Shown here: positions 30,711 through 42,687 of the stretch, piece after piece
How positions within the stretch are numbered: position 1 is the stretch's first letter
How the letters are laid out: the number at the start of each line of letters is the position of its first letter
Assembly (NCBI GenBank): GCA_964438315.1
Contig: CAYTKH010000001.1
Coordinates: forward strand, 1 to 42,687
Direction of reading: 5' to 3'
DNA length: 42,687 nucleotides
Source of the DNA: an uncultured Muribaculaceae bacterium
GTDB taxonomy: Bacteria; Bacillota_I; Bacilli_A; RF39; UBA660
Position numbers and translations under genes: made by a program
The notes under the pieces: model-generated
The model's input: the letters and a program-made list of their open reading frames with translations, nothing else
Database searches by the model: none
Told to the model about the DNA's origin: nothing

Positions 30711-31235
30711 CTAAATCCATATAATCTTTTGCTTTAGCGAATCAACGTTATAACATATCCAACAACAACCTTTATTGAAACTTGTAGCTTTACCTAAAAA
30801 TTTAATCCTCTTTTTGAATATCAAAATACTTAATTTATCTATATACCTTTCATACATCCCAGCTCTAGTCGGTGTTTCTAATGTTGATAAAGGTAATAAC
30901 AAACAAAACGATTTTATAAGTCCGTCTTCTACTAATTGAAATGTTCTTCTTATAATGTCATTTTGTTGAGAAAAAGGCGGATTACTAATCAATAAATCAC
31001 AGTTTTTAGGTGGTTGCGTAGTAAAGAAGTCATTACCCAAATCATCAAATATATGAGTTGCTTTATATTTCAAATTTAATTCATCCGCTTTAAGTTTAAA
31101 TTCTGAATCGTAATTATTAAACGGGAACCATATATTTTTAAATGATTGTATATCAATTAGTTTATAAATATCTTCAACTACAAATCTTGGCGTTGCAACA
31201 TGATCACTATTTGTTTTTTTATCTTCTTCATACAT
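30711..31235 (-). CDS. Putative orphan N6-adenine DNA methyltransferase (small EcoRI-methylase-like family)
   Basis: DLLISNPPFS (NPPF, motif IV) and an N-terminal ATPRFVVEDI segment. No adjacent restriction gene. Confidence 0.45.
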   Translation of the reverse strand: MYEEDKKTNSDHVATPRFVVEDIYKLIDIQSFKNIWFPFNNYDSEFKLKADELNLKYKATHIFDDLGNDFFTTQPPKNCDLLISNPPFSQQNDIIRRTFQLVEDGLIKSFCLLLPLSTLETPTRAGMYERYIDKLSILIFKKRIKFLGKATSFNKGCCWICYNVDSLKQKIIWI

Positions 31236-31241
31236 ATTGTT

Positions 31242-31484
31242 TTATTTATTCACCTTCCTCTTAAAACTTGCATAATCTGAACAACCAGCTGTCACTAAAA
31301 TATCTTTAATTATTTTTATACATTGCACGAATGCATCGACATTTCCATTTTTTACTTTTTCAATGATATAATCGTTGTACTCGTCATAGTTCATTCTTTT
31401 ATATGGCCTTTTATTGTATTTTTTTATAAAATCAAAATCTATTTTTGTTATTGCTATCTCATCTTTTACTTCAAATAGTTTCAT
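31242..31484 (-). CDS. Hypothetical early protein
   Basis: 80-aa ORF. Confidence 0.35.
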   Translation of the reverse strand: MKLFEVKDEIAITKIDFDFIKKYNKRPYKRMNYDEYNDYIIEKVKNGNVDAFVQCIKIIKDILVTAGCSDYASFKRKVNK

Positions 31485-31504
31485 TCGGTAATTTTTCTAA
31501 AGCT

Positions 31505-31804
31505 CTAAAATGCTCTTTCTTCTAAATATTTTTTAATTAATTCTTCATCGGTGGAATTAATAATTTTATTGTTATCTTGATAAGTTACTTTTACACTTCC
31601 ACCATAGGTGTTATATACCTCAAATGATTTAATTCCTCTATCGTTTTTATAGTTACTTATAGCCCTAGCTCTAGTAACTCTTGTATCATAATCCCAAAAT
31701 TTCTTTTCTCTGATAAAAAATGCTAAATCTTGTCGCCATTGTTTTAAATTAAAATTAACTTTTAATTTTTCTGCAAACCACGTGCTATTATAATGTTTTG
31801 CCAT
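31505..31804 (-). CDS. Hypothetical early protein
   Basis: 99-aa ORF. Confidence 0.4.
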   Translation of the reverse strand: MAKHYNSTWFAEKLKVNFNLKQWRQDLAFFIREKKFWDYDTRVTRARAISNYKNDRGIKSFEVYNTYGGSVKVTYQDNNKIINSTDEELIKKYLEERAF

Positions 31805-31805
31805 T

Positions 31806-32051
31806 TTATACCTCTTTCCTTTTTTTATTGATTTTAGATATATTTGATTCTAAGTTACTTTTTTTTATTTCTTTTAAGTCATTTTTATATTTTGTTGCTA
31901 ATTCTTTATACAAATCTCTTTCATCGATTAAATTACTCTTCTTTCGATAAAGTGTTAGTAATTCTTCATTTAATGCTATACATTTTAAATTTAATGTATT
32001 TAATTTCTTTTTTAATGATATATTTTCTGTTACTAATTTTAATAATTTCAT
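31806..32051 (-). CDS. Hypothetical coiled-coil early protein
   Basis: 81-aa ORF. Confidence 0.35.
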   Translation of the reverse strand: MKLLKLVTENISLKKKLNTLNLKCIALNEELLTLYRKKSNLIDERDLYKELATKYKNDLKEIKKSNLESNISKINKKRKEV

Positions 32052-32093
32052 ATTTTCTCCTTACCTCTTTTATTCATTCACAATAATTTATAA

Positions 32094-32663
32094 TTAATCA
32101 TTTTCCAAAATATAAGTGGCTTTTAAATCGGCAATATGTAATGCTAAAGCTAAATTACATTTTTTATAAGCTTGTCCTAATGATTGATATTCTTCTTTAG
32201 GGACATAAGCACCCATGTGCCAACGAATAGCTAATATTTCTTCATCTGTTAAATTGATATATTTTTGTATTAATATAACTGATTTTTCACCATGTCCAAG
32301 TGGAAGTTTTTCATCATATGTATAAAATGGTACTTGAATCCACTCATCTTTTTCATTCTTAACATTTTTTGTTGATTCTTTATAAAAATTAATTTTACAT
32401 ACATCATGTAACAGTGCTACTATTTTCAAAGTATCACTTTTTGTTTTTGTTATTACTTCTCCCATGGTTACTTCTTTTAATAATAATTTATAAACATTTA
32501 AACTATGTTGGACTAAACCTCCGACATAACAACAATGATATTTTGAACTTGCTGGAGCTTCAAAAAAATCAGTGTTAAGTAGATAATCTATTAGTTCATC
32601 AATTCCCTCTCTATCTACTGTTTTTAATAATTCTAAATATATTTTTTTGTTTTCTTCTTGCAT
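32094..32663 (-). CDS. HD-domain phosphohydrolase
   Basis: H...HD motif (VALLHDVCK), then GHGEKS and RWHMG. Confidence 0.65.
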   Translation of the reverse strand: MQEENKKIYLELLKTVDREGIDELIDYLLNTDFFEAPASSKYHCCYVGGLVQHSLNVYKLLLKEVTMGEVITKTKSDTLKIVALLHDVCKINFYKESTKNVKNEKDEWIQVPFYTYDEKLPLGHGEKSVILIQKYINLTDEEILAIRWHMGAYVPKEEYQSLGQAYKKCNLALALHIADLKATYILEND

Positions 32664-32675
32664 ATTTTCTCCTTT

Positions 32676-33482
32676 TTAATTATACTTTGCTAATAATTCT
32701 TCCATTTCTTTTAATTCTTCTAAAGTAGCTTCTCTTGTTTCTATTTCTTTATCAAACCATTTAGGTTTAGTTTCCTTTCTTTTATTCCGCATATAGTTTT
32801 TTGGAACTTGCTCAATTGTTTTTATATTCGAACCTATCCAGTTATTTAAAATACCTTCTACATAATTAAAATTTTTAGCATCACTCATAATTGATATTTC
32901 AATTGCTTTATACAACAATCTGATATCTTCTAGTGATTCAACCCAATTTTGAATTTTTTTTATTTCAATAGCTGTTAAATTTCTTTGATAATTTTTTTCT
33001 ATAAATTCGAATATATTAGTATTTAGATTAGTCTTATATAATTTATATTTTTTATTATAATTTATATTATTATTTATAATTACAATTACATTTTCTAAAA
33101 TGCATTTATTCGGTACTTGCACGGGCAATGCCACGGCATTACTTTGGCATGTATTTGGCTGTTCTTGTTTTGGCTTATTTTTCCAACGTTTTTTTGCTCT
33201 CTCACTTTGCTTTTTACTATATTCTTTTCGATTTTCAATTATTTTTTCTAAAGTTTTATCGTAAAAAAATCCGTTTTTATCTTTAGAAAATTTTGATAAA
33301 ACATCTTTACTAATATTAGGTATATTTAACTTAATTATTTTTTCGCTTAAATGACCTGTTTGTTGTTGCAAACACCACATTGTTATGTATTGGCCTCTTT
33401 CTTCAAAAGTTAAATCAGAACACTCACTTAGAAAATCATTTGAATAAAGAAGAAAAGCAGGATCTTTTTCTTTTTTTGACAT
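32676..33482 (-). CDS. Replisome organiser: DUF1376/YdaU-like N-terminus plus a DnaD/DnaB_2-like C-terminal domain
   Basis: N-terminal PAFLLYSNDFLSECSDLTFEERGQYITMWC. C-terminal IFEFIEKNYQRNLTAIEIKKIQNW...NFNYVEGILNNW. Confidence 0.65.
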   Translation of the reverse strand: MSKKEKDPAFLLYSNDFLSECSDLTFEERGQYITMWCLQQQTGHLSEKIIKLNIPNISKDVLSKFSKDKNGFFYDKTLEKIIENRKEYSKKQSERAKKRWKNKPKQEQPNTCQSNAVALPVQVPNKCILENVIVIINNNINYNKKYKLYKTNLNTNIFEFIEKNYQRNLTAIEIKKIQNWVESLEDIRLLYKAIEISIMSDAKNFNYVEGILNNWIGSNIKTIEQVPKNYMRNKRKETKPKWFDKEIETREATLEELKEMEELLAKYN

Positions 33483-33497
33483 TGTTCCTCCTAATTA

Positions 33498-33526
33498 TTG
33501 ACTTTTTAATTTATTATTGATATAAT
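33498..33526 (+). promoter_or_regulatory. Near-consensus sigma-A promoter pointing antisense to the early operon
   Basis: TTGACT, a 17-nt spacer, then TGaTATAAT (extended -10), read directly. Confidence 0.6.
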
Positions 33527-33532
33527 CAGTAT

Positions 33533-33588
33533 GTAATTATTATTTAATTACAACTTGTGAGACTTGTTTTTTAACAAGTCCTTTTTCT
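33533..33588 (+). ncRNA. Candidate ~55-nt antisense sRNA (type I antitoxin-like or OOP-like)
   Basis: The promoter above is followed by the hairpin GACTTGTT-tttt-AACAAGTC (33561-33580) and CTTTTTCT. There is no ORF. The RNA is complementary to the 3' end of the 47-aa peptide gene. Confidence 0.5.
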
Positions 33589-33683
33589 ATATCATTTTTT
33601 AATGCTAATGCATTTAATAAATTAATTAATAGAACCCCCAATATAAATATAATTAATAAGCTATATTTTTTTATTTTTTTCAT
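33540..33683 (-). CDS. 47-aa hydrophobic peptide (type I toxin-like, or a small membrane protein)
   Basis: MKKIKKYSLLIIFILGVLLINLLNALALKNDIEKGLVKKQVSQVVIK. SD AAGGAG lies 8 nt before the ATG at 33683. The track ORF extends artificially to 33803. Confidence 0.5.
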   Translation of the reverse strand: MKKIKKYSLLIIFILGVLLINLLNALALKNDIEKGLVKKQVSQVVIK

Positions 33684-33703
33684 AGTATTACTCCTTTTAT
33701 TTT

Positions 33704-33847
33704 TATTTGAGTACTTAAAGAAGCCTAGTCTTAATTTAGAAAGGAAATGTTTTATTTTTATGTATATAATACCGTTAAAAGTCAATTTTGGTTGTAAAAG
33801 CATAATATAGAGATTTTTTTGACTAGACTTCTTTAAGTACTCAAATA
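33704..33847. repeat. Inverted repeat pair IR1: 27-bp arms (26/27) around a 90-bp spacer
   Basis: Arms are 33704-33730 (tatttgagtacttaaagaagcctagtc) and 33821-33847 (gactagacttctttaagtactcaaata). Confidence 0.9.
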
Positions 33848-33888
33848 TTTTTATATTTTAAGCTTGTCCTTCTATTATAAGAAGTTCT

Positions 33889-34026
33889 TTAAACTTCCTT
33901 TTTTACGGAATAAGTTATTTTAATTTTTTCCTGAAATTCATATAATTCAATCAAAGTTTTTATAATATTATCTGAATTTTCTTTAAAAAATTTTTTTAGG
34001 TTGGTAGCCTCTTTTTTGTTTTCCAT
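33889..34026 (-). CDS. Small ORF (45 aa) between the two inverted-repeat pairs
   Basis: Hand-translated as MENKKEATNLKKFFKENSDNIIKTLIELYEFQEKIKITYSVKKEV. SD AAGAGGTGA upstream. Confidence 0.4.
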   Translation of the reverse strand: MENKKEATNLKKFFKENSDNIIKTLIELYEFQEKIKITYSVKKEV

Positions 34027-34086
34027 TTTTTCACCTCTTATAAAATTTTATGTTTTTATACTTGTACATTATATTTAATTTCTTTT

Positions 34087-34201
34087 ACTCGAACACTTAA
34101 TGAAAAGTAGATATTGAAACAACTAAAAGTTTTTAATTAGTAATTTAATAGAATAAAAAGGATTGAATAATTAATATCTACTCTTCGCTAAGTGCTCGAA
34201 T
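34087..34201. repeat. Inverted repeat pair IR2: 29-bp arms (24/29) around a 57-bp spacer
   Basis: Arms are 34087-34115 (actcgaacacttaatgaaaagtagatatt) and 34173-34201 (aatatctactcttcgctaagtgctcgaat). The core is related to the IR1 arms. Confidence 0.85.
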
Positions 34202-34267
34202 ATGTTATATTTTGTTTTGCTTTTGTGTTATAATTACCCCATGCAGTATACATTAGAAATGAGGTGT

Positions 34268-34432
34268 ATGATTTTGGCTAGTCAGCGAAAAACTAGTAGT
34301 AAGGCTGCCACTGCCACTTCTAAAGTTCTAAGAGATGGTCGCACATCTAAAGATTCAAAGACCGCAGCCGGTTCGGCTTTATCTCAAGTTGCTGGCAGTG
34401 CATTATCTCAATGTTCTAGAAAAGGTAAATAG
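34268..34432 (+). CDS. Small hydrophilic Lys/Ser/Ala-rich protein with a duplicated AGSALSQ motif
   Basis: MILASQRKTSSKAATATSKVLRDGRTSKDSKTAAGSALSQVAGSALSQCSRKGK. Extended -10 TGtTATAAT at 34226-34234. The true start may be the TTG at 34274, which is better spaced from SD GAGGTG. Confidence 0.45.
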   Translation: MILASQRKTSSKAATATSKVLRDGRTSKDSKTAAGSALSQVAGSALSQCSRKGK

Positions 34433-34453
34433 TTCTCGCTAAAGATTTCAAGT

Positions 34454-34666
34454 TTAATTTATCAGGCTAGACTTGATTTCTTTTTTTATTTTTTCTAAAT
34501 TAATATCAAATAATATTGCTATATTTATTAGCTCATCAGCCGTAAATTTTCTTTTACCGTTTAAAGATAAATTAATTTTACTTCGTGCTATTTTAGTTCT
34601 AGTTGCAATCTCGTATTGCGATATTTTATTTTCATTAAAGTATTCTTTTAAATAATTGGATATCAT
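34454..34666 (-). CDS. XRE-family HTH protein (70 aa)
   Basis: ISQYEIATRTKIARSKINLSLNGKRKFTADELINIA is a typical Cro/C1 HTH. SD AGGAGGA upstream. Confidence 0.7.
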   Translation of the reverse strand: MISNYLKEYFNENKISQYEIATRTKIARSKINLSLNGKRKFTADELINIAILFDINLEKIKKEIKSSLIN

Positions 34667-34686
34667 ATTTTCCTCCTATTTTTTAT

Positions 34687-34715
34687 TTGAAGTTTTTACC
34701 TCTTACTGCTATAAT
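34687..34715 (+). promoter_or_regulatory. Sigma-A promoter for plus-strand ORF 34744..35121
   Basis: TTGAAG, a 17-nt spacer, then TGcTATAAT. Confidence 0.55.
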
Positions 34716-34743
34716 TTTTTTTATAGAAAGTGAGGTGAAAATT

Positions 34744-35121
34744 TTGAATACAACAGAAATAATTGCTTTGAGTGCTGTTATATCGCCCAGTGCTATAACT
34801 CTAATAAATAATTATTATATTTTTAAAACTAAGCGGATTGAAAATTATGATTTAGCTAAACGTGGAGCATTAGAGGAATTTTCAATTGCAGTTAGCACAT
34901 ATTCAACTTCTGGTCATAAAAAAGATGAATTTGCATATAACAATGCTCTATCTAAATTAATCATATATTTTTCATTATCTAAAAATGATATTGATGCTTT
35001 AAATCAAACTACCGATTTTAATTCATTATTAATCGAAGCTAACAAGCTAATTTTTAAATTATCCCGGCAGATTCAGCCCACAAAGCTATTACAATTGAAG
35101 CGTATATTCCGTAAATTATAG
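34744..35121 (+). CDS. Plus-strand accessory ORF (125 aa, helical, no family recognised)
   Basis: SD GTGAGGTGA 5 nt before the TTG at 34744. It has its own promoter, and its 3' end overlaps the convergent small peptide gene. Confidence 0.45.
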   Translation: MNTTEIIALSAVISPSAITLINNYYIFKTKRIENYDLAKRGALEEFSIAVSTYSTSGHKKDEFAYNNALSKLIIYFSLSKNDIDALNQTTDFNSLLIEANKLIFKLSRQIQPTKLLQLKRIFRKL

Positions 35122-35209
35122 CAGGATATAAACCGCCACTTATTAAAAAGTATATAAAACTTATTATTGCTGATATAATTAAAATTAATAAAAACGTATC
35201 ATTACTCAT
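35054..35209 (-). CDS. 51-aa two-TM hydrophobic peptide downstream of the cro-like gene
   Basis: Hand-translated as MSNDTFLLILIISAIISFIYFLISGGLYPAIIYGIYASIVIALWAESAGII. SD GGAGAAG upstream. The start is 10 nt after the stop of 35220..35462. Confidence 0.45.
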   Translation of the reverse strand: MSNDTFLLILIISAIISFIYFLISGGLYPAIIYGIYASIVIALWAESAGII

Positions 35210-35219
35210 TTTACTTCTC

Positions 35220-35462
35220 CTATTCTTCTTTTATTGCGTTTTGCAATATATGTTTCAAAAAAAATTCAAATAAATTCCAATCAAGATATTCGCTTAATTT
35301 AAATGCTTGTTCCAAATTCATTTTGTTAGGATTATATTCTAATTCCCTATATGTAGGAATGGATATATGTAACAAATTGGCACAATCTTCTTGACTTTTC
35401 TTTTGTTTAAATCTTTGAATTTTTAATTCTTCACTTAATTTAAAAATTTCATCTGCATTCAT
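35220..35462 (-). CDS. Cro-like XRE-family HTH protein, first gene of the leftward (lytic) operon
   Basis: KSQEDCANLLHISIPTYRELEYNPNKMNLEQAFKLSEYL forms the HTH. It is transcribed from the consensus leftward promoter. Confidence 0.7.
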   Translation of the reverse strand: MNADEIFKLSEELKIQRFKQKKSQEDCANLLHISIPTYRELEYNPNKMNLEQAFKLSEYLDWNLFEFFLKHILQNAIKEE

Positions 35463-35485
35463 ACTTTACCTCCTATCTGTCACAA

Positions 35486-35514
35486 ATTATACATTGCATT
35501 TTGCAATATGTCAA
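35486..35514 (-). promoter_or_regulatory. Consensus leftward (lytic) promoter
   Basis: On the minus strand: TTGACA (35514-35509), a 17-nt spacer, TATAAT (35491-35486). The spacer contains the operator palindrome. Confidence 0.7.
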
Positions 35515-35555
35515 TGCTTTTTTGCAAATTGTAAAAAAAACATTGCATTTTATGT
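35494..35555. promoter_or_regulatory. Three operator-like sites of type TTGCA-N3-TGCAA
   Basis: TTGCAtttTGCAA at 35494-35506 (perfect), TTGCAaatTGTAA at 35522-35534, TTGCAtttTATGT at 35543-35555. A fourth copy, TTGCGtttTGCAA, is at 35234-35246. Confidence 0.6.
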
Positions 35556-35571
35556 TTTCAGATGTTATAAT
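35543..35571 (+). promoter_or_regulatory. Rightward (lysogeny operon) promoter
   Basis: TTGCAT, a 17-nt spacer, then TGtTATAAT. It overlaps the third operator. Confidence 0.6.
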
Positions 35572-35595
35572 CAAACAAGAAAGGAGTTATTTAAA

Positions 35596-35952
35596 ATGAA
35601 AAATTATTTTGCCAAAAATATTAAATATTTGCGAAAAAGAAAAAATATAGACCAAAACGTTATGGCAGAGGATTTAGGTGTTGCCCAATCAACTCTAAGT
35701 TGTTGGGAAAATGGATTAAGGACACCAGACTTAGATATGATTGCTAAAATTTCGAAATATTTAAATGTCTACGATGACTTTATTTCTAAAGATTTAACAA
35801 ATATTGATAATGATAATAAATATGATGAATTAGATATTCTCTTTTCTAAACATAAAAACATCTTATCAGAAAGTGACAAAAACATAATAAAAACTATTAT
35901 TGAAGAAAGAAAAAAAGCTATTGATAAGGAAATTGGTGAAGAAGAAGATTAA
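35596..35952 (+). CDS. XRE-family repressor (ImmR-like partner of the downstream ImmA-type protease)
   Basis: NVMAEDLGVAQSTLSCWENGLRTPDLDMIAKISKYL forms the HTH. ATG at 35596 follows SD AAGGAG. The track ORF start at 35494 lies in the operator region. Confidence 0.7.
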   Translation: MKNYFAKNIKYLRKRKNIDQNVMAEDLGVAQSTLSCWENGLRTPDLDMIAKISKYLNVYDDFISKDLTNIDNDNKYDELDILFSKHKNILSESDKNIIKTIIEERKKAIDKEIGEEED

Positions 35953-36007
35953 AAATAAGTATGCTAGTATAGATACTTAATATATGAAGTAAAGAGGTGT
36001 ATTAAGT

Positions 36008-36331
36008 GTGGAAATTTATAACTTATTAAAAAATGAAATAACACAGCAAGAATTGCTTAATTATTATAATGCCAATATCACAATAATTGAATTGCCAAAG
36101 GGAATAAATGCTTTTGTATTTAGTTATAGAAATATTCATAATATTATCATTAACAAAAATTTATCATATTATAAAAGAAAAAAAGCTATACTACATGAAT
36201 TAGCTCATATAGAGTTAAGTCACTTGCAACAGAAAGATAATGATTTATTTGCTTTTAAAATTGATAAGTACGAAGATGAAGCAGATAGATATATTAAAAT
36301 TATTTTAGAAAGTATTGAAGAGAAGTTGTAA
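36008..36331 (+). CDS. ImmA/IrrE-family zinc metallopeptidase (short form)
   Basis: HEXXH with a downstream H: ILHELAHIELSH. It lies immediately after an XRE gene, as in ImmR/ImmA pairs. Confidence 0.6.
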   Translation: MEIYNLLKNEITQQELLNYYNANITIIELPKGINAFVFSYRNIHNIIINKNLSYYKRKKAILHELAHIELSHLQQKDNDLFAFKIDKYEDEADRYIKIILESIEEKL

Positions 36332-36428
36332 TATCAATGAAGAAAAATAAAATATATATTTTTTATTCGCGTTGCTATTAATTTTACTTCCATTTGATAC
36401 AGTTCAAGCAGGTAGAGGTTGATGTACT

Positions 36429-37127
36429 ATGAATTATATAGGTAATTTCATAAAAAAATACCGTGGTGATATGTCTCTAAGAGAATTTGCAGAAAAATGT
36501 GATATAAGTCATACTCACTTAGATAGTATAGAAAAGGGAATTGATCCTAGAACTGGCAAACCAGTAAGAGTAACTGTGGACACTCTAAAAAAAATTGCCA
36601 AAACAATGGGAATGACAATTAATGACTTACTTATTCAATCTGGAGATGTAAAAATTGAGGATTTAAACTTTGACAATGCAGAATTTTTAAATCATGATAC
36701 TAATGATGACAATATAGCATATATACCAATTTTAGGAACTATAAAAGCTGGTGTGCCACTAGAAGCACAACAAGATATATTAGAATATGTTGATATACCT
36801 AAATCTTGGTTAAAAGGTGATAAAATGTATTATGGTCTAAAAATAAGTGGAGACAGTATGTATCCAAAATACCTTGAAAATGATATTGTTATATTTGAAA
36901 AAAATGAGGACATGTATTTAGCTGATAATAAAGACTGTGCTATATATGTTAACGGATTCGATGCTACATTTAAAAAAGTTAAATTAAACCAAAACGGTAT
37001 TACATTGATACCATACAATTTAGATAATACCGATGGCTTTGAGACTACATATTATGATAAAGAACAAATAGCAAATTTACCAATCAGAATAATAGGTATT
37101 GCTAGAGAAAAAAGAACTAGATTATAA
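36429..37127 (+). CDS. LexA/CI-type repressor: XRE HTH plus S24 autopeptidase
   Basis: N-terminal HTH (MSLREFAEKCDISHTHLDSIEKG). C-terminal S24 signature GLKISGDSMYP (Ser) ... DATFKKV (Lys). Confidence 0.8.
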   Translation: MNYIGNFIKKYRGDMSLREFAEKCDISHTHLDSIEKGIDPRTGKPVRVTVDTLKKIAKTMGMTINDLLIQSGDVKIEDLNFDNAEFLNHDTNDDNIAYIPILGTIKAGVPLEAQQDILEYVDIPKSWLKGDKMYYGLKISGDSMYPKYLENDIVIFEKNEDMYLADNKDCAIYVNGFDATFKKVKLNQNGITLIPYNLDNTDGFETTYYDKEQIANLPIRIIGIAREKRTRL

Positions 37128-37648: not shown

Positions 37649-38170
37649 ATGCAATCAACGATTAAAGAAAAAACACAAATTGAAAAAATAGATTACAGTA
37701 ATACAAATTATAAATATGCTTATAATTCTAATTGTTTAAAATTTAACTGGTTAGGCAATTGGTTAGAAAAGCAGTCAACTGTATTCAAAAACGAAGCCAA
37801 TAAAAATAGCAATAGCAAGCCAAATTTCAAAAGAGGTGAGATTATAAAAGTTGACTTTGGAATTAATATGGGGTCAGAACTATCGAACACACATTTTGCC
37901 ATTGTATTAAATAGTGATGATAATAACAGTGTTGATAACATAACTGTATTACCGTTAACATCCAAAGGCGGATATAAAAGATTATATTTAGGTGATTTAC
38001 TCAAACAATTTAAATATGACAAAAAATATAATAAAAAAAGTTATGGTTTAATAACTCAAATAACCACAATTAGTAAAAATAAAATTTTTAAAGATGCTAT
38101 TAGGGCTTATTGTAATAAAGATACAATGAATATTATTAATAAAGAGATAATAGAATTCTTAACGAAATAA
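37649..38170 (+). CDS. PemK/MazF-fold protein with a ~60-aa N-terminal extension
   Basis: KRGEIIKVDFGINMGSELSNTHFAIVLNSDD...ITVLPLTSKGG...SYGLITQITTISKNKI follows the MazF/PemK pattern (RGD-I/V..DF..G.E...RP.VVL ... P.TS ... Q.RTI). SD GGAGGT upstream. Confidence 0.55.
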   Translation: MQSTIKEKTQIEKIDYSNTNYKYAYNSNCLKFNWLGNWLEKQSTVFKNEANKNSNSKPNFKRGEIIKVDFGINMGSELSNTHFAIVLNSDDNNSVDNITVLPLTSKGGYKRLYLGDLLKQFKYDKKYNKKSYGLITQITTISKNKIFKDAIRAYCNKDTMNIINKEIIEFLTK

Positions 38171-38365
38171 AAATGACTATTACAATAAGTAATAGCCATA
38201 CGACCAAACGGTCACAGTCACTCGACTTTCGCCGATACGTTCATAAAGAACACAGTTGATAAAAGCACCTGCTTTTATGACTAAATAATATCATAAAAAT
38301 TACTATTTAGTCAATATTATTATATACAAAATTCAATAAAATATGAAAATGAGAGAAAATGACAG

Positions 38366-38446: not shown

Positions 38447-38570
38447 CATACAAATATATCATATTGAAAAAAGACCTCGCACAGCAAATACAAGGTCTAA
38501 TGAAAACTCAAACATAAGGCCACCAACCTATGAAACAAAAATAGACAAGCTATAATTGTATGGAGCTTTC
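38411..38570 (-). ncRNA. Candidate minus-strand sRNA upstream of the integrase gene
   Basis: Extended -10 TGcTATAAT on the minus strand (38578-38586). A first, weak terminator at 38466-38498 (AGACCT..AGGTCT plus U6) and a second at 38411-38446. The only internal ORF is 18 codons long. Confidence 0.3.
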
Positions 38571-41329: not shown

Positions 41330-42151
41330 TCAACATAATTCAGAATAGATACTTTCTATTTCACTTAATTTTTCAAACTGTTCCTGGGATGCATTTCTAT
41401 TCATCATACTTTTCTTAATAATATCTATTCTTGAACCATAAGTAAGACAAGCATATTCATTACTTTTATTTCTGAATTCTTGTAATAAATTCAAATAATC
41501 ATCACAAACGGGAATAACTTTAAATTTATTACCAATTGGTACAACATAATTTACTTTTACACCAATTGATAAACATTTTGAGATGAAATTTGGTAATAAT
41601 GCATAACATTTATTGTGAGCTTCAATGTTTGATAATTTAGCATTAATACTTCCTGATATTTCTTTTTCGTATCGTTCTCTTGTTGCAAGTAAACTTGATA
41701 AATTACCGACTACAACAACATTTATAACAACATCACAATTATGGGGAATCGTTTTTATCAGTTCCAATAAACTATAGTCAATTGGTGCCTTTTCTCTTAA
41801 AACAGAATAACCATTTTGGATTGCATAAGCAAAAAGTTCATCACCCCATAAATGTGCATCAAAATTTGTAAGTTTCACATAGTCCGTTGGATATTTTTCT
41901 AATATTTCATTAGAATACTTACTAAATCTACGATAATCATCGGAGTTTATGACTATATACTTCGACAAACCTGACCCCTCTATAAATGTTGTTTTCCCAC
42001 AACCAGGTTGACCAACAACAAACATAATTGATGGATATTTTTCAGCAATCTTACCTACAAATAAATCTTTTTTTAGCAATTCTAAAACTTTATTATGTTC
42101 TTCTTGAGATAATTTATATTTTTCAATTAATTCATTTATCTGTTTTTCCAT
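41330..42151 (-). CDS. Zeta-toxin-family P-loop kinase
   Basis: MFVVGQPGCGKTTF (Walker A) followed by VINSDDYRRF, matching the zeta pattern GGQPG.GKT ... D.D.F(R/K). ATG at 42151 follows SD GGAGGG. Confidence 0.55.
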   Translation of the reverse strand: MEKQINELIEKYKLSQEEHNKVLELLKKDLFVGKIAEKYPSIMFVVGQPGCGKTTFIEGSGLSKYIVINSDDYRRFSKYSNEILEKYPTDYVKLTNFDAHLWGDELFAYAIQNGYSVLREKAPIDYSLLELIKTIPHNCDVVINVVVVGNLSSLLATRERYEKEISGSINAKLSNIEAHNKCYALLPNFISKCLSIGVKVNYVVPIGNKFKVIPVCDDYLNLLQEFRNKSNEYACLTYGSRIDIIKKSMMNRNASQEQFEKLSEIESIYSELC

Positions 42152-42195
42152 CCTTTTCCCTCCAAAATGATTACTATTTTTTAATTTGCATTTAA

Positions 42196-42687
42196 TCAAA
42201 TACCAATTTTATTATTTTTCTTGGCTTCGATATTCCATTTTATGACACCATAAATATTTATTAATAAATAACCAATAGATACAAGTAACATCATTATTGA
42301 TCCATTTCCACCATTTATTACAGTTATAATCCAAATTATTAAATCTATAATATTATTTATTAACCATAACCACCACGATTCTTTAAATCTTAATATCATT
42401 AAGATTACACCACAAAGATTTATACAATTTGAAGTAGCATCCATAAACGCTAATCTTTGATTAGGTATTAATGTTAAAAATAATACTACCTATTATACAA
42501 GATAAAGTTATTATAATAGAATTTTTTTTAGTAAATTCTCGTGCCTTAACATTCTTATCATCATTCAAATTTTTATTCCAAGTAATAAACCCATTAACTT
42601 GAAGTGGAGAAAAAATAAATATATAAAAGAAAAAGATACCAAATAAATTATTTTTATAAGCAACATATCCCATTAATAAATTATTTA
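42196..42687 (-). pseudogene. pnuC: PnuC-family (nicotinamide riboside-type) transporter gene, frameshifted and 5'-truncated by the window end
   Basis: The C-terminal part (FKESWWLWLINNIIDLIIW...YGVIKW) is typical of PnuC. The two halves (42461..42673+ and 42196..42444) are in different frames, and the frames overlap near the A5 run at 42476-42480. Confidence 0.6.

Follow-up and report, generated by a model that had tools for sequence, protein, structure and literature searches.

A candidate OOP-like antisense RNA opposite a membrane-peptide gene before the replication gene of a Bacilli prophage

Introduction

Does a strong promoter that faces into the 3′ end of a small membrane-peptide gene, and is followed by a terminator within that gene, drive a real RNA, and if it does, is that RNA the antitoxin of a toxin pair or a regulator of phage replication? 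The question is raised by positions 33498–33588 on the plus strand of a 42,687-nt contig (CAYTKH010000001.1 of assembly GCA_964438315.1; the whole stretch is called the window below), which belongs to the genome of an uncultured, low-GC, gut-type Bacilli-class bacterium and carries a prophage. Cis-antisense RNAs at the junction before the replication genes are textbook knowledge for phage lambda. The papers found in a literature search (PMC12197685 among them) describe none at this place for phages of Gram-positive or uncultured small-genome Bacilli.

A preliminary description of the locus had proposed such an RNA and offered two readings of it: a type I toxin–antitoxin pair of the kind of BsrG/SR4 and TxpA/RatA, and an analogue of the lambda OOP RNA. 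Its anatomy was borne out: the promoter, the terminator, the peptide gene with its Shine-Dalgarno (SD) sequence just upstream of the replication gene and the predicted RNA of about 55 nt complementary to the end of the peptide gene are all present where they had been placed. The two readings fared differently, the OOP-like layout recurring in distant relatives and the assignment to the type I toxin–antitoxin systems failing on several counts. We conclude that the plus strand at 33498–33588 is very probably the gene of a non-coding cis-antisense RNA of about 55 nt, one that is probably transcribed constitutively, and that the unit most likely works like lambda pO/OOP without being a sequence relative of any Rfam family.

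Results

Anatomy of the antisense unit

The junction between the peptide gene and the replication gene holds the following elements:

33498..33526, + strand: promoter of the antisense RNA; −35 box TTGACT at 33498–33503, a T-rich spacer of 17 nt and the extended −10 box TGaTATAAT at 33518–33526 (11/12 consensus positions plus TG)
33533..33551, + strand: predicted 5′ stem-loop of the RNA, GUAAUUA-uuauu-UAAUUAC
33561..33588, + strand: intrinsic terminator; 8-bp stem GACTTGTT-tttt-AACAAGTC (33561–33580) with three G-C pairs, then CTTTTTCT (33581–33588)
33540..33683, − strand: open reading frame (ORF) of the 47-aa peptide, MKKIKKYSLLIIFILGVLLINLLNALALKNDIEKGLVKKQVSQVVIK; ATG at 33683, double stop TAA-TAA, end at 33540
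33691..33695, − strand: SD sequence of the peptide gene, AGGAG, 7 nt upstream of the ATG, as read from the sequence
32676..33482, − strand: replication gene; 268 aa, with an N-terminal DUF1376/YdaU-like and a C-terminal DnaB_2/DnaD domain
33492..33487, − strand: SD sequence of the replication gene, AGGAGG, 6 nt from the −35 box of the antisense promoter

The replication gene starts 57 nt beyond the end of the peptide ORF, directly downstream in the early operon, and the antisense promoter exactly fills this gap, sitting 39 nt upstream of the replication gene's start codon. With the transcription start placed at about 33533 from the position of the −10 box, the predicted RNA would extend over roughly 33533–33588, or about 55 nt; it contains no ORF, and its complementarity to the peptide gene covers the final 49 nt of that reading frame, stop codon included (33540–33588). 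The RNA is predicted to fold into two hairpins (ΔG −14 kcal/mol, z = −4.35, with none of 200 shuffled sequences folding as well), and the minimum free energy and centroid structures agree on the 5′ stem-loop. The second hairpin, that of the terminator, begins 34 nt after the −10 box and lies within the peptide codons ...EKGLVKKQV.... As its T-tract is found on the plus strand only, with an A-run preceding the hairpin on the minus strand and no T-run following it there, a role as a minus-strand terminator can be ruled out. In silico, the locus has what marks an RNA of the OOP type, a short ORF-less unit with a sigma-70-type promoter and an intrinsic terminator of its own; a scan of 31000–37000 with Rfam 15 at E ≤ 5 gave only chance-level matches to unrelated families.

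The pairing of the two signals is what makes the unit stand out. A promoter scoring at least 11/12 that is followed by a terminator 10–120 nt on is expected 0.04 times per window and was seen once, and when a stem of at least 8 bp is demanded, the expectation falls to 0.0075 per window. In the whole 1.28-Mb host genome, 266 promoters reach 11/12 and only 12 form such cassettes; tRNA genes account for at least 3 of these, and several more resemble leader or attenuator units by sequence, so that the presence of a cassette is a fair indication of a genuine small transcription unit.

Recurrence of the layout in relatives

Because the peptide is an orphan (searches of 5.8 billion clusters and, by a full HMMER pass, of 1.84 billion representatives returned nothing but the peptide itself), the comparison followed the replication gene, whose product has its closest homologues at 37–50% identity. 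The clearest counterpart comes from a locus (L027) with a DnaD protein 45–49% identical to that of the window. Just upstream of its DnaD gene lies an uncalled 52-aa ORF with one transmembrane (TM) helix and a GTG start preceded by an SD sequence, and antisense to the 3′ end of this ORF stands a cassette with the promoter TTGATT-17-TGcTATACT, 34 nt to the hairpin GACTTGATTCA-ttgcag-TGATTCAAGTC, and then T8. The distance from the −10 box to the stem is the same 34 nt in both loci, the two sequences align without a gap from the −35 box to the hairpin, and the predicted L027 RNA folds like that of the window (z = −5.09).

For the wider survey, a script searched 157 loci with a DUF1376/DnaD gene, of which 142 were left after the removal of duplicates. 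An antisense cassette within 300 nt upstream of the replication gene was found in 10 of the 142, a sense-strand cassette in 4 of the 142 and a cassette in 2 of 284 reversed-sequence controls (p = 0.0005); within the gene body, antisense cassettes occurred in 1 of 153 loci, counted before duplicate removal. The convincing cases are the window, L027, L028, L146, L048, L043 and L071, plus L242, which was fetched after the survey of the 142 loci. In these cases, the −10 box, mostly TGnTATAAT, lies 30–90 nt upstream of the start of the replication gene; in five of them (the window, L027, L028, L242 and L146), an extended −10 antisense promoter stands 30–62 nt upstream. The candidate RNAs have z-scores from −2.8 to −5.6, and among the folded loci all but L048 combine a 5′ stem-loop at the start of the RNA with a terminator hairpin, the stem-loop being predicted in L027, L028, L146, L071 and L043 as well as in the window.

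The cassette goes with a particular kind of neighbour. The terminator lies inside the 3′ end of the gene for a 75-aa protein with two TM helices in L028 and inside that for a 50-aa protein with one TM helix in L146; in L242, the gene that is overlapped codes for 104 aa, with a TM helix at the N-terminus and a long polar region. In these three loci, the window and L027, the terminator hairpin falls within the last 35–50 nt of the membrane-protein ORF. Small TM ORFs, counted when preceded by an SD sequence and ending within 150 nt of the replication gene, are present just upstream in 5 of the 142 loci, and 4 of these 5 have the cassette as against 6 of the 137 others (Fisher p = 6e-5). Where the gene upstream of the same replication gene encodes no membrane protein, as in L030, L244, L245 and L247, the junction has no cassette, L030 showing only a weak antisense match about 180 nt upstream. 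That the arrangement persists at 37–50% protein identity, where any resemblance between the peptides has become unrecognisable, argues for selection acting on the layout, and its recurrence supports a real lysogeny-strand RNA opposing the early transcript. The match between the peptides of the window and L146 (BLASTP E = 0.011) reflects composition only.

Chance and other points of caution

A number of results weigh against this interpretation. Promoters alone occur at chance frequency in DNA of 26% GC: four scoring at least 11/12 were seen in the window and 3.98 were expected from 400 order-2 Markov simulations, so the antisense promoter by itself is not significant. The terminator is modest, with an 8-bp stem, three G-C pairs, about −8 kcal/mol and an interrupted T-tract. 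In the survey, the contrast between antisense and sense cassettes is weak when taken alone (10 vs. 4, p = 0.17; in low-GC loci, 7 vs. 1, p = 0.06), and as the supporting loci are relatives of one another, the Fisher p-values overstate their independence. The stem word GACTTG/CAAGTC shared by the window and L027 is a common terminator in the bacterial family: the pattern GACTTG-N4-20-CAAGTC-T6 occurs in 36 of 401 family genomes and never in the reversed control, mostly at ordinary gene ends and after tRNA genes (e.g., L111–L140), which makes it a terminator stem preferred family-wide. Its presence in both loci is therefore not evidence of homology, and its use as a homology marker was rejected, as 29 of the 30 fetched loci proved to be ordinary gene-end or tRNA terminators without a promoter. 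Viral and metagenome contigs gave no match to three DNA patterns derived from the window and L027, no close DNA relative was matched in the phage collection, and a DNA search of 60 related genomes gave low-complexity matches only. Finally, the candidate RNAs can be aligned only between the window and L027, and a MAFFT alignment of the two places the 3′ arm of the stem out of register.

The simplest alternative is that the arrangement is a coincidence of AT-rich DNA, with no stable plus-strand RNA and with the hairpin being a structure in the coding region of the early mRNA. The promoter count agrees with this, and two of the four high-scoring promoters in the window, which lie antisense in large structural genes, have a spurious look; over 5.5 kb, terminator-like sites are at chance level, too (1 vs. 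1.3 expected), and the sense-strand control of the survey is not zero. What a coincidence explains poorly is the conjunction: the joint cassette is expected far less than once per window, the promoter falls exactly in the sole non-coding gap, the T-tract follows the hairpin on the plus strand only and the predicted folds are strongly non-random. The arrangement is found again in L027 with equal spacing and in at least three more relatives, at a protein divergence where intergenic DNA should be randomised. We consider chance a distinctly unlikely explanation of the locus.

The membrane peptide and the toxin–antitoxin alternative

The 47-aa peptide has a basic N-terminus, one TM helix (called from a Kyte-Doolittle window of 17 residues at ≥ 2.2) and a polar tail of 20 aa with a net charge of +3. 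It matched no Pfam or NCBIfam family at E ≤ 5 and no PHROGs family at E ≤ 0.05, known toxin families included, and, being a TM peptide without a helix-turn-helix, it is no cII-type lysogeny regulator of the kind that OOP targets in lambda. A consensus scan of the minus strand from 34429 to 33684 found no sigma-A-like promoter (at least 9/12) for the peptide gene, the sole candidate being a degenerate TTGACT-17-CATAAA at 33786..33758. With no promoter of its own to be seen, the gene appears to be part of the early lytic operon.

By its looks, the peptide could be a membrane toxin and the RNA of about 55 nt its antitoxin, as in a true type I pair. It is a small hydrophobic membrane peptide (<60 aa) with one TM helix and a positively charged tail, like recognised toxins (compare PMC7699646), and the RNA is convergent and overlaps its 3′ end, as in all four Bacillus systems that have been studied (PMC6562991); the mRNA of YonT is polycistronic, too, with the antitoxin SR6 extending across the boundary to the following gene (PMC5848175). 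The host has an RNase III, and the cassette tracks membrane-protein genes, L242 included, rather than the replication gene as such. The details fit less well. As no lysogen-active promoter is seen, the peptide would be made only with the lytic early operon, a pattern at odds with post-segregational killing from a lysogen and with addiction from a repressed prophage. The overlap is 49 nt vs. 100–140 bp in the Bacillus systems (PMC6562991), the peptide has neither a toxin family nor a homologue, and the partners in two of the relatives, a 75-aa protein with two TM helices and a 104-aa protein with a long polar region, are not toxin-like. In the window, L027 and L146, the Lys codons of the Lys-rich tail (EK, KK; AAA) are the complement of the U-tract and A-rich loop of the small RNA, so the tail is partly a by-product of dual coding. 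The filing with BsrG/SR4 and TxpA/RatA is therefore not supported, and a type I pair of any kind seems unlikely, although it keeps some weight.

The possibility that the peptide is a secreted signalling pro-peptide, suggested by an ALA-LK motif resembling a signal-peptidase site, was also considered and set aside: no receptor gene lies nearby, and the sole hint, a match of the L146 peptide to PhrA, is insignificant (E = 0.11).

Just upstream of the peptide gene's SD sequence lies a further element:

33704–33730 / 33821–33847, either strand: 27-bp inverted repeat, 26/27 positions complementary (96%), with a spacer of 90 nt

The repeat forms a long hairpin on either strand and is followed on the plus strand by TTTTTATATTTT, so it could stop read-through of the small RNA; a longer read-through form of the RNA, ending at the repeat, is possible. 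The degenerate promoter candidate of the peptide gene lies in its loop and is an inverted copy of the small RNA's own promoter, 33758–33786 matching 33497–33525 at 76% of positions. The repeat may be part of the small RNA module: it could serve as a back-up terminator that yields a long antisense form, as a structure in the 5′ untranslated region or as a DNA element.

The replication gene and the origin alternative

The product of the replication gene matches the DnaB_2/DnaD type in Pfam (1.5e-14) and the "DnaD-like helicase loader" phrog_186 (4.6e-21). Its 3′ end has a second affinity: the last ~37 codons (32677–32786) share 87% DNA identity with the 3′ end of a dnaB-like replication gene of the host (428 aa, C20:12433-13719), and the last 45 residues of the two proteins are 67% identical. 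The host gene is followed by a 303-aa gene that is DnaI-like by position. The match was found to be the host's own dnaB-like gene and not a second prophage, and it suggests that the phage borrowed the C-terminus from its host, perhaps for engaging the host helicase loader.

The promoter might matter more than its RNA, transcription from it activating or priming a phage origin beside or inside the DnaD gene through an R-loop or by transcriptional activation, a mode first suggested for oop and afterwards demonstrated for pO activity at ori-lambda. The promoter has a fixed position relative to the initiator gene, 30–62 nt upstream, in five loci, the region is AT-rich and has the 27-bp inverted repeat nearby, and in lambda, pO activity affects replication independently of the level of oop RNA (PMC3985674). 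Transcription from the promoter is nevertheless directed away from the replication gene, and no iterons or origin were identified at the locus. Where relatives carry this replication gene without a membrane-protein gene upstream, no cassette is found, which ties the cassette to the membrane-protein gene and not to an origin; we regard origin activation as very improbable.

Prophage and host context

The host genome is a metagenome assembly of 1.28 Mb, 69.5% complete and with 25.6% G+C, the window being one of its contigs; genomes in the host's family are about 1 Mb. The prophage spans roughly 100–40014 of the window, with its structural and early genes on the minus strand and a lysogeny block on the plus strand that encodes an XRE regulator, an ImmA-like protease, an S24 repressor, a MazF-like protein and a serine integrase. 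Two further features of the prophage are:

100–1020: amidase endolysin
35514, leftward: early promoter, a perfect TTGACA-17-TATAAT

Several other features were noted along the way. The early region has a second pairing of sense and antisense at a membrane-peptide gene: a 51-aa peptide with two TM helices, encoded at 35054–35209 on the minus strand right after the cro-like gene, is overlapped at its 3′ end by a convergent plus-strand ORF (34687–35121) with its own promoter TTGAAG-17-TGcTATAAT. Also on the plus strand within the leftward early region, a 54-aa ORF at 34268–34432, preceded by TGtTATAAT at 34226–34234, matches phrog_5079 (1.1e-15), a family of unknown function, and is likely a lysogen-expressed moron. 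In the lysogeny block, the MazF-like protein (37649–38170) has a PemK/MazF fold (Pfam 1.8e-12) and an N-terminal extension of about 60 aa. Between its gene and that of the serine integrase, a second promoter-plus-terminator cassette is found on the minus strand (38173–38347), with TTGACT-18-TGnTATTAT at 38314 and an 11-bp-stem terminator at 38199..38173; its candidate RNA would be about 85–110 nt long and oppose the lysogeny operon, and a further minus-strand terminator lies at 38498..38472. Beyond the integrase end of the prophage, 41330–42199 encodes a zeta-toxin-like kinase (7.2e-17).

Discussion

The interpretation that we favour, with confidence only a little past the balance point, is that of an OOP-like cis-antisense RNA that dampens the membrane peptide and controls the entry of early transcription into the replication module. 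On the polycistronic early mRNA, the small RNA would form a perfect duplex with the final 49 nt of the peptide ORF. As the host encodes RNase III (232.7 bits vs. a cut-off of 166), the duplex could be cut, which would lower the expression of the peptide and would sever or destabilise the early message just before the replication gene. In addition, an RNA polymerase bound to or firing from the strong convergent promoter may hinder early transcription on its way into the replication module. Overall, leaky early transcription would be kept silent in the lysogen, and induction would meet a threshold or a delay. Precedents are known: OOP is antisense to the 3′ end of cII beside the replication genes and acts through RNase III, and lambda pO interferes with transcription from pR (PMC3985674), while in Bacillus, antitoxin RNAs attach to toxin mRNAs at the 3′ end and speed up the degradation of these mRNAs (PMC6562991, PMC5848175).

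The likeness to lambda OOP (pO/tO), and to OOP-BTP1 of the Salmonella prophage BTP1, lies in the layout. There, too, the non-coding RNA is short and forms a unit of its own, with a sigma-70-type promoter and an intrinsic terminator (PMC3985674, PMC7067206); it is transcribed against the early lytic operon from a promoter that is convergent with the early promoter and stands beside the replication genes, and it covers the 3′ end of the gene that directly precedes the replication initiator gene, as predicted for the window. The parts, in contrast, differ: the overlapped gene is a cII-type transcription activator in lambda and a 47-aa membrane peptide here, the replication gene is lambda O there and DUF1376/DnaD here, and the host is an enterobacterium in one case and a low-GC Bacilli-class bacterium in the other. 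A search against Rfam at E ≤ 5 found no sequence relationship.

The pairs yonT/SR6, bsrG/SR4 and txpA/RatA of Bacillus subtilis prophages resemble the unit in their small hydrophobic peptide gene within a prophage and in the expected mechanism of RNase III-assisted decay (PMC5848175, PMC6562991); in yonT/SR6, moreover, yonT is polycistronic and SR6 stands at the junction with the next gene (PMC5848175, PMC6562991). Unlike the peptide of the window, for which no promoter is visible and no known toxin family was matched, these toxins have their own lysogen-active promoters, and their antitoxins are 100–220 nt long with 100–140 bp of complementarity, whereas the predicted RNA of the window is about 55 nt long and overlaps its target by 49 nt. 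The type I pairs of Clostridioides difficile prophages (CD0977.1/RCd11 and others) likewise have antisense RNAs with sigma-A promoters (PMC7699646); their toxins, however, form a recognisable conserved family and have their own promoters in lysogens, while the window peptide lies without a homologue inside an early operon.

A bolder proposal is that the peptide, the antisense RNA and the DUF1376/DnaD gene make up a conserved module for replication licensing and RNA immunity, with the small RNA of the prophage acting in trans on a superinfecting phage. A constitutive and fast-diverging small RNA would then cut the early message of an incoming phage of the same type just before its replication gene and confer a sequence-specific, repressor-independent homoimmunity, in the manner of a plasmid incompatibility determinant; for the small membrane protein, the proposal implies a role in anchoring replication to the membrane, or as a toxin, and a dose that has to be tied to that of the initiator. 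We hold this to be improbable as an account of the locus.

For the reading of the unit as an OOP-like RNA, the main interest lies in the recurring coupling of the antisense cassette to small membrane-protein genes. Should the RNA be real, a very different phage lineage would have evolved or retained the pO/OOP design of a convergent promoter and a short antisense RNA just before the initiator gene, and would have it coupled to genes of small membrane proteins. It would also call for some caution in annotation, as the Lys-rich tails of mini-proteins can be a by-product of an antisense terminator, and a hydrophobic mini-ORF facing a small RNA is not automatically a type I toxin. Lastly, the RNA would offer a simple and testable handle on how prophages of this kind keep their replication silent.

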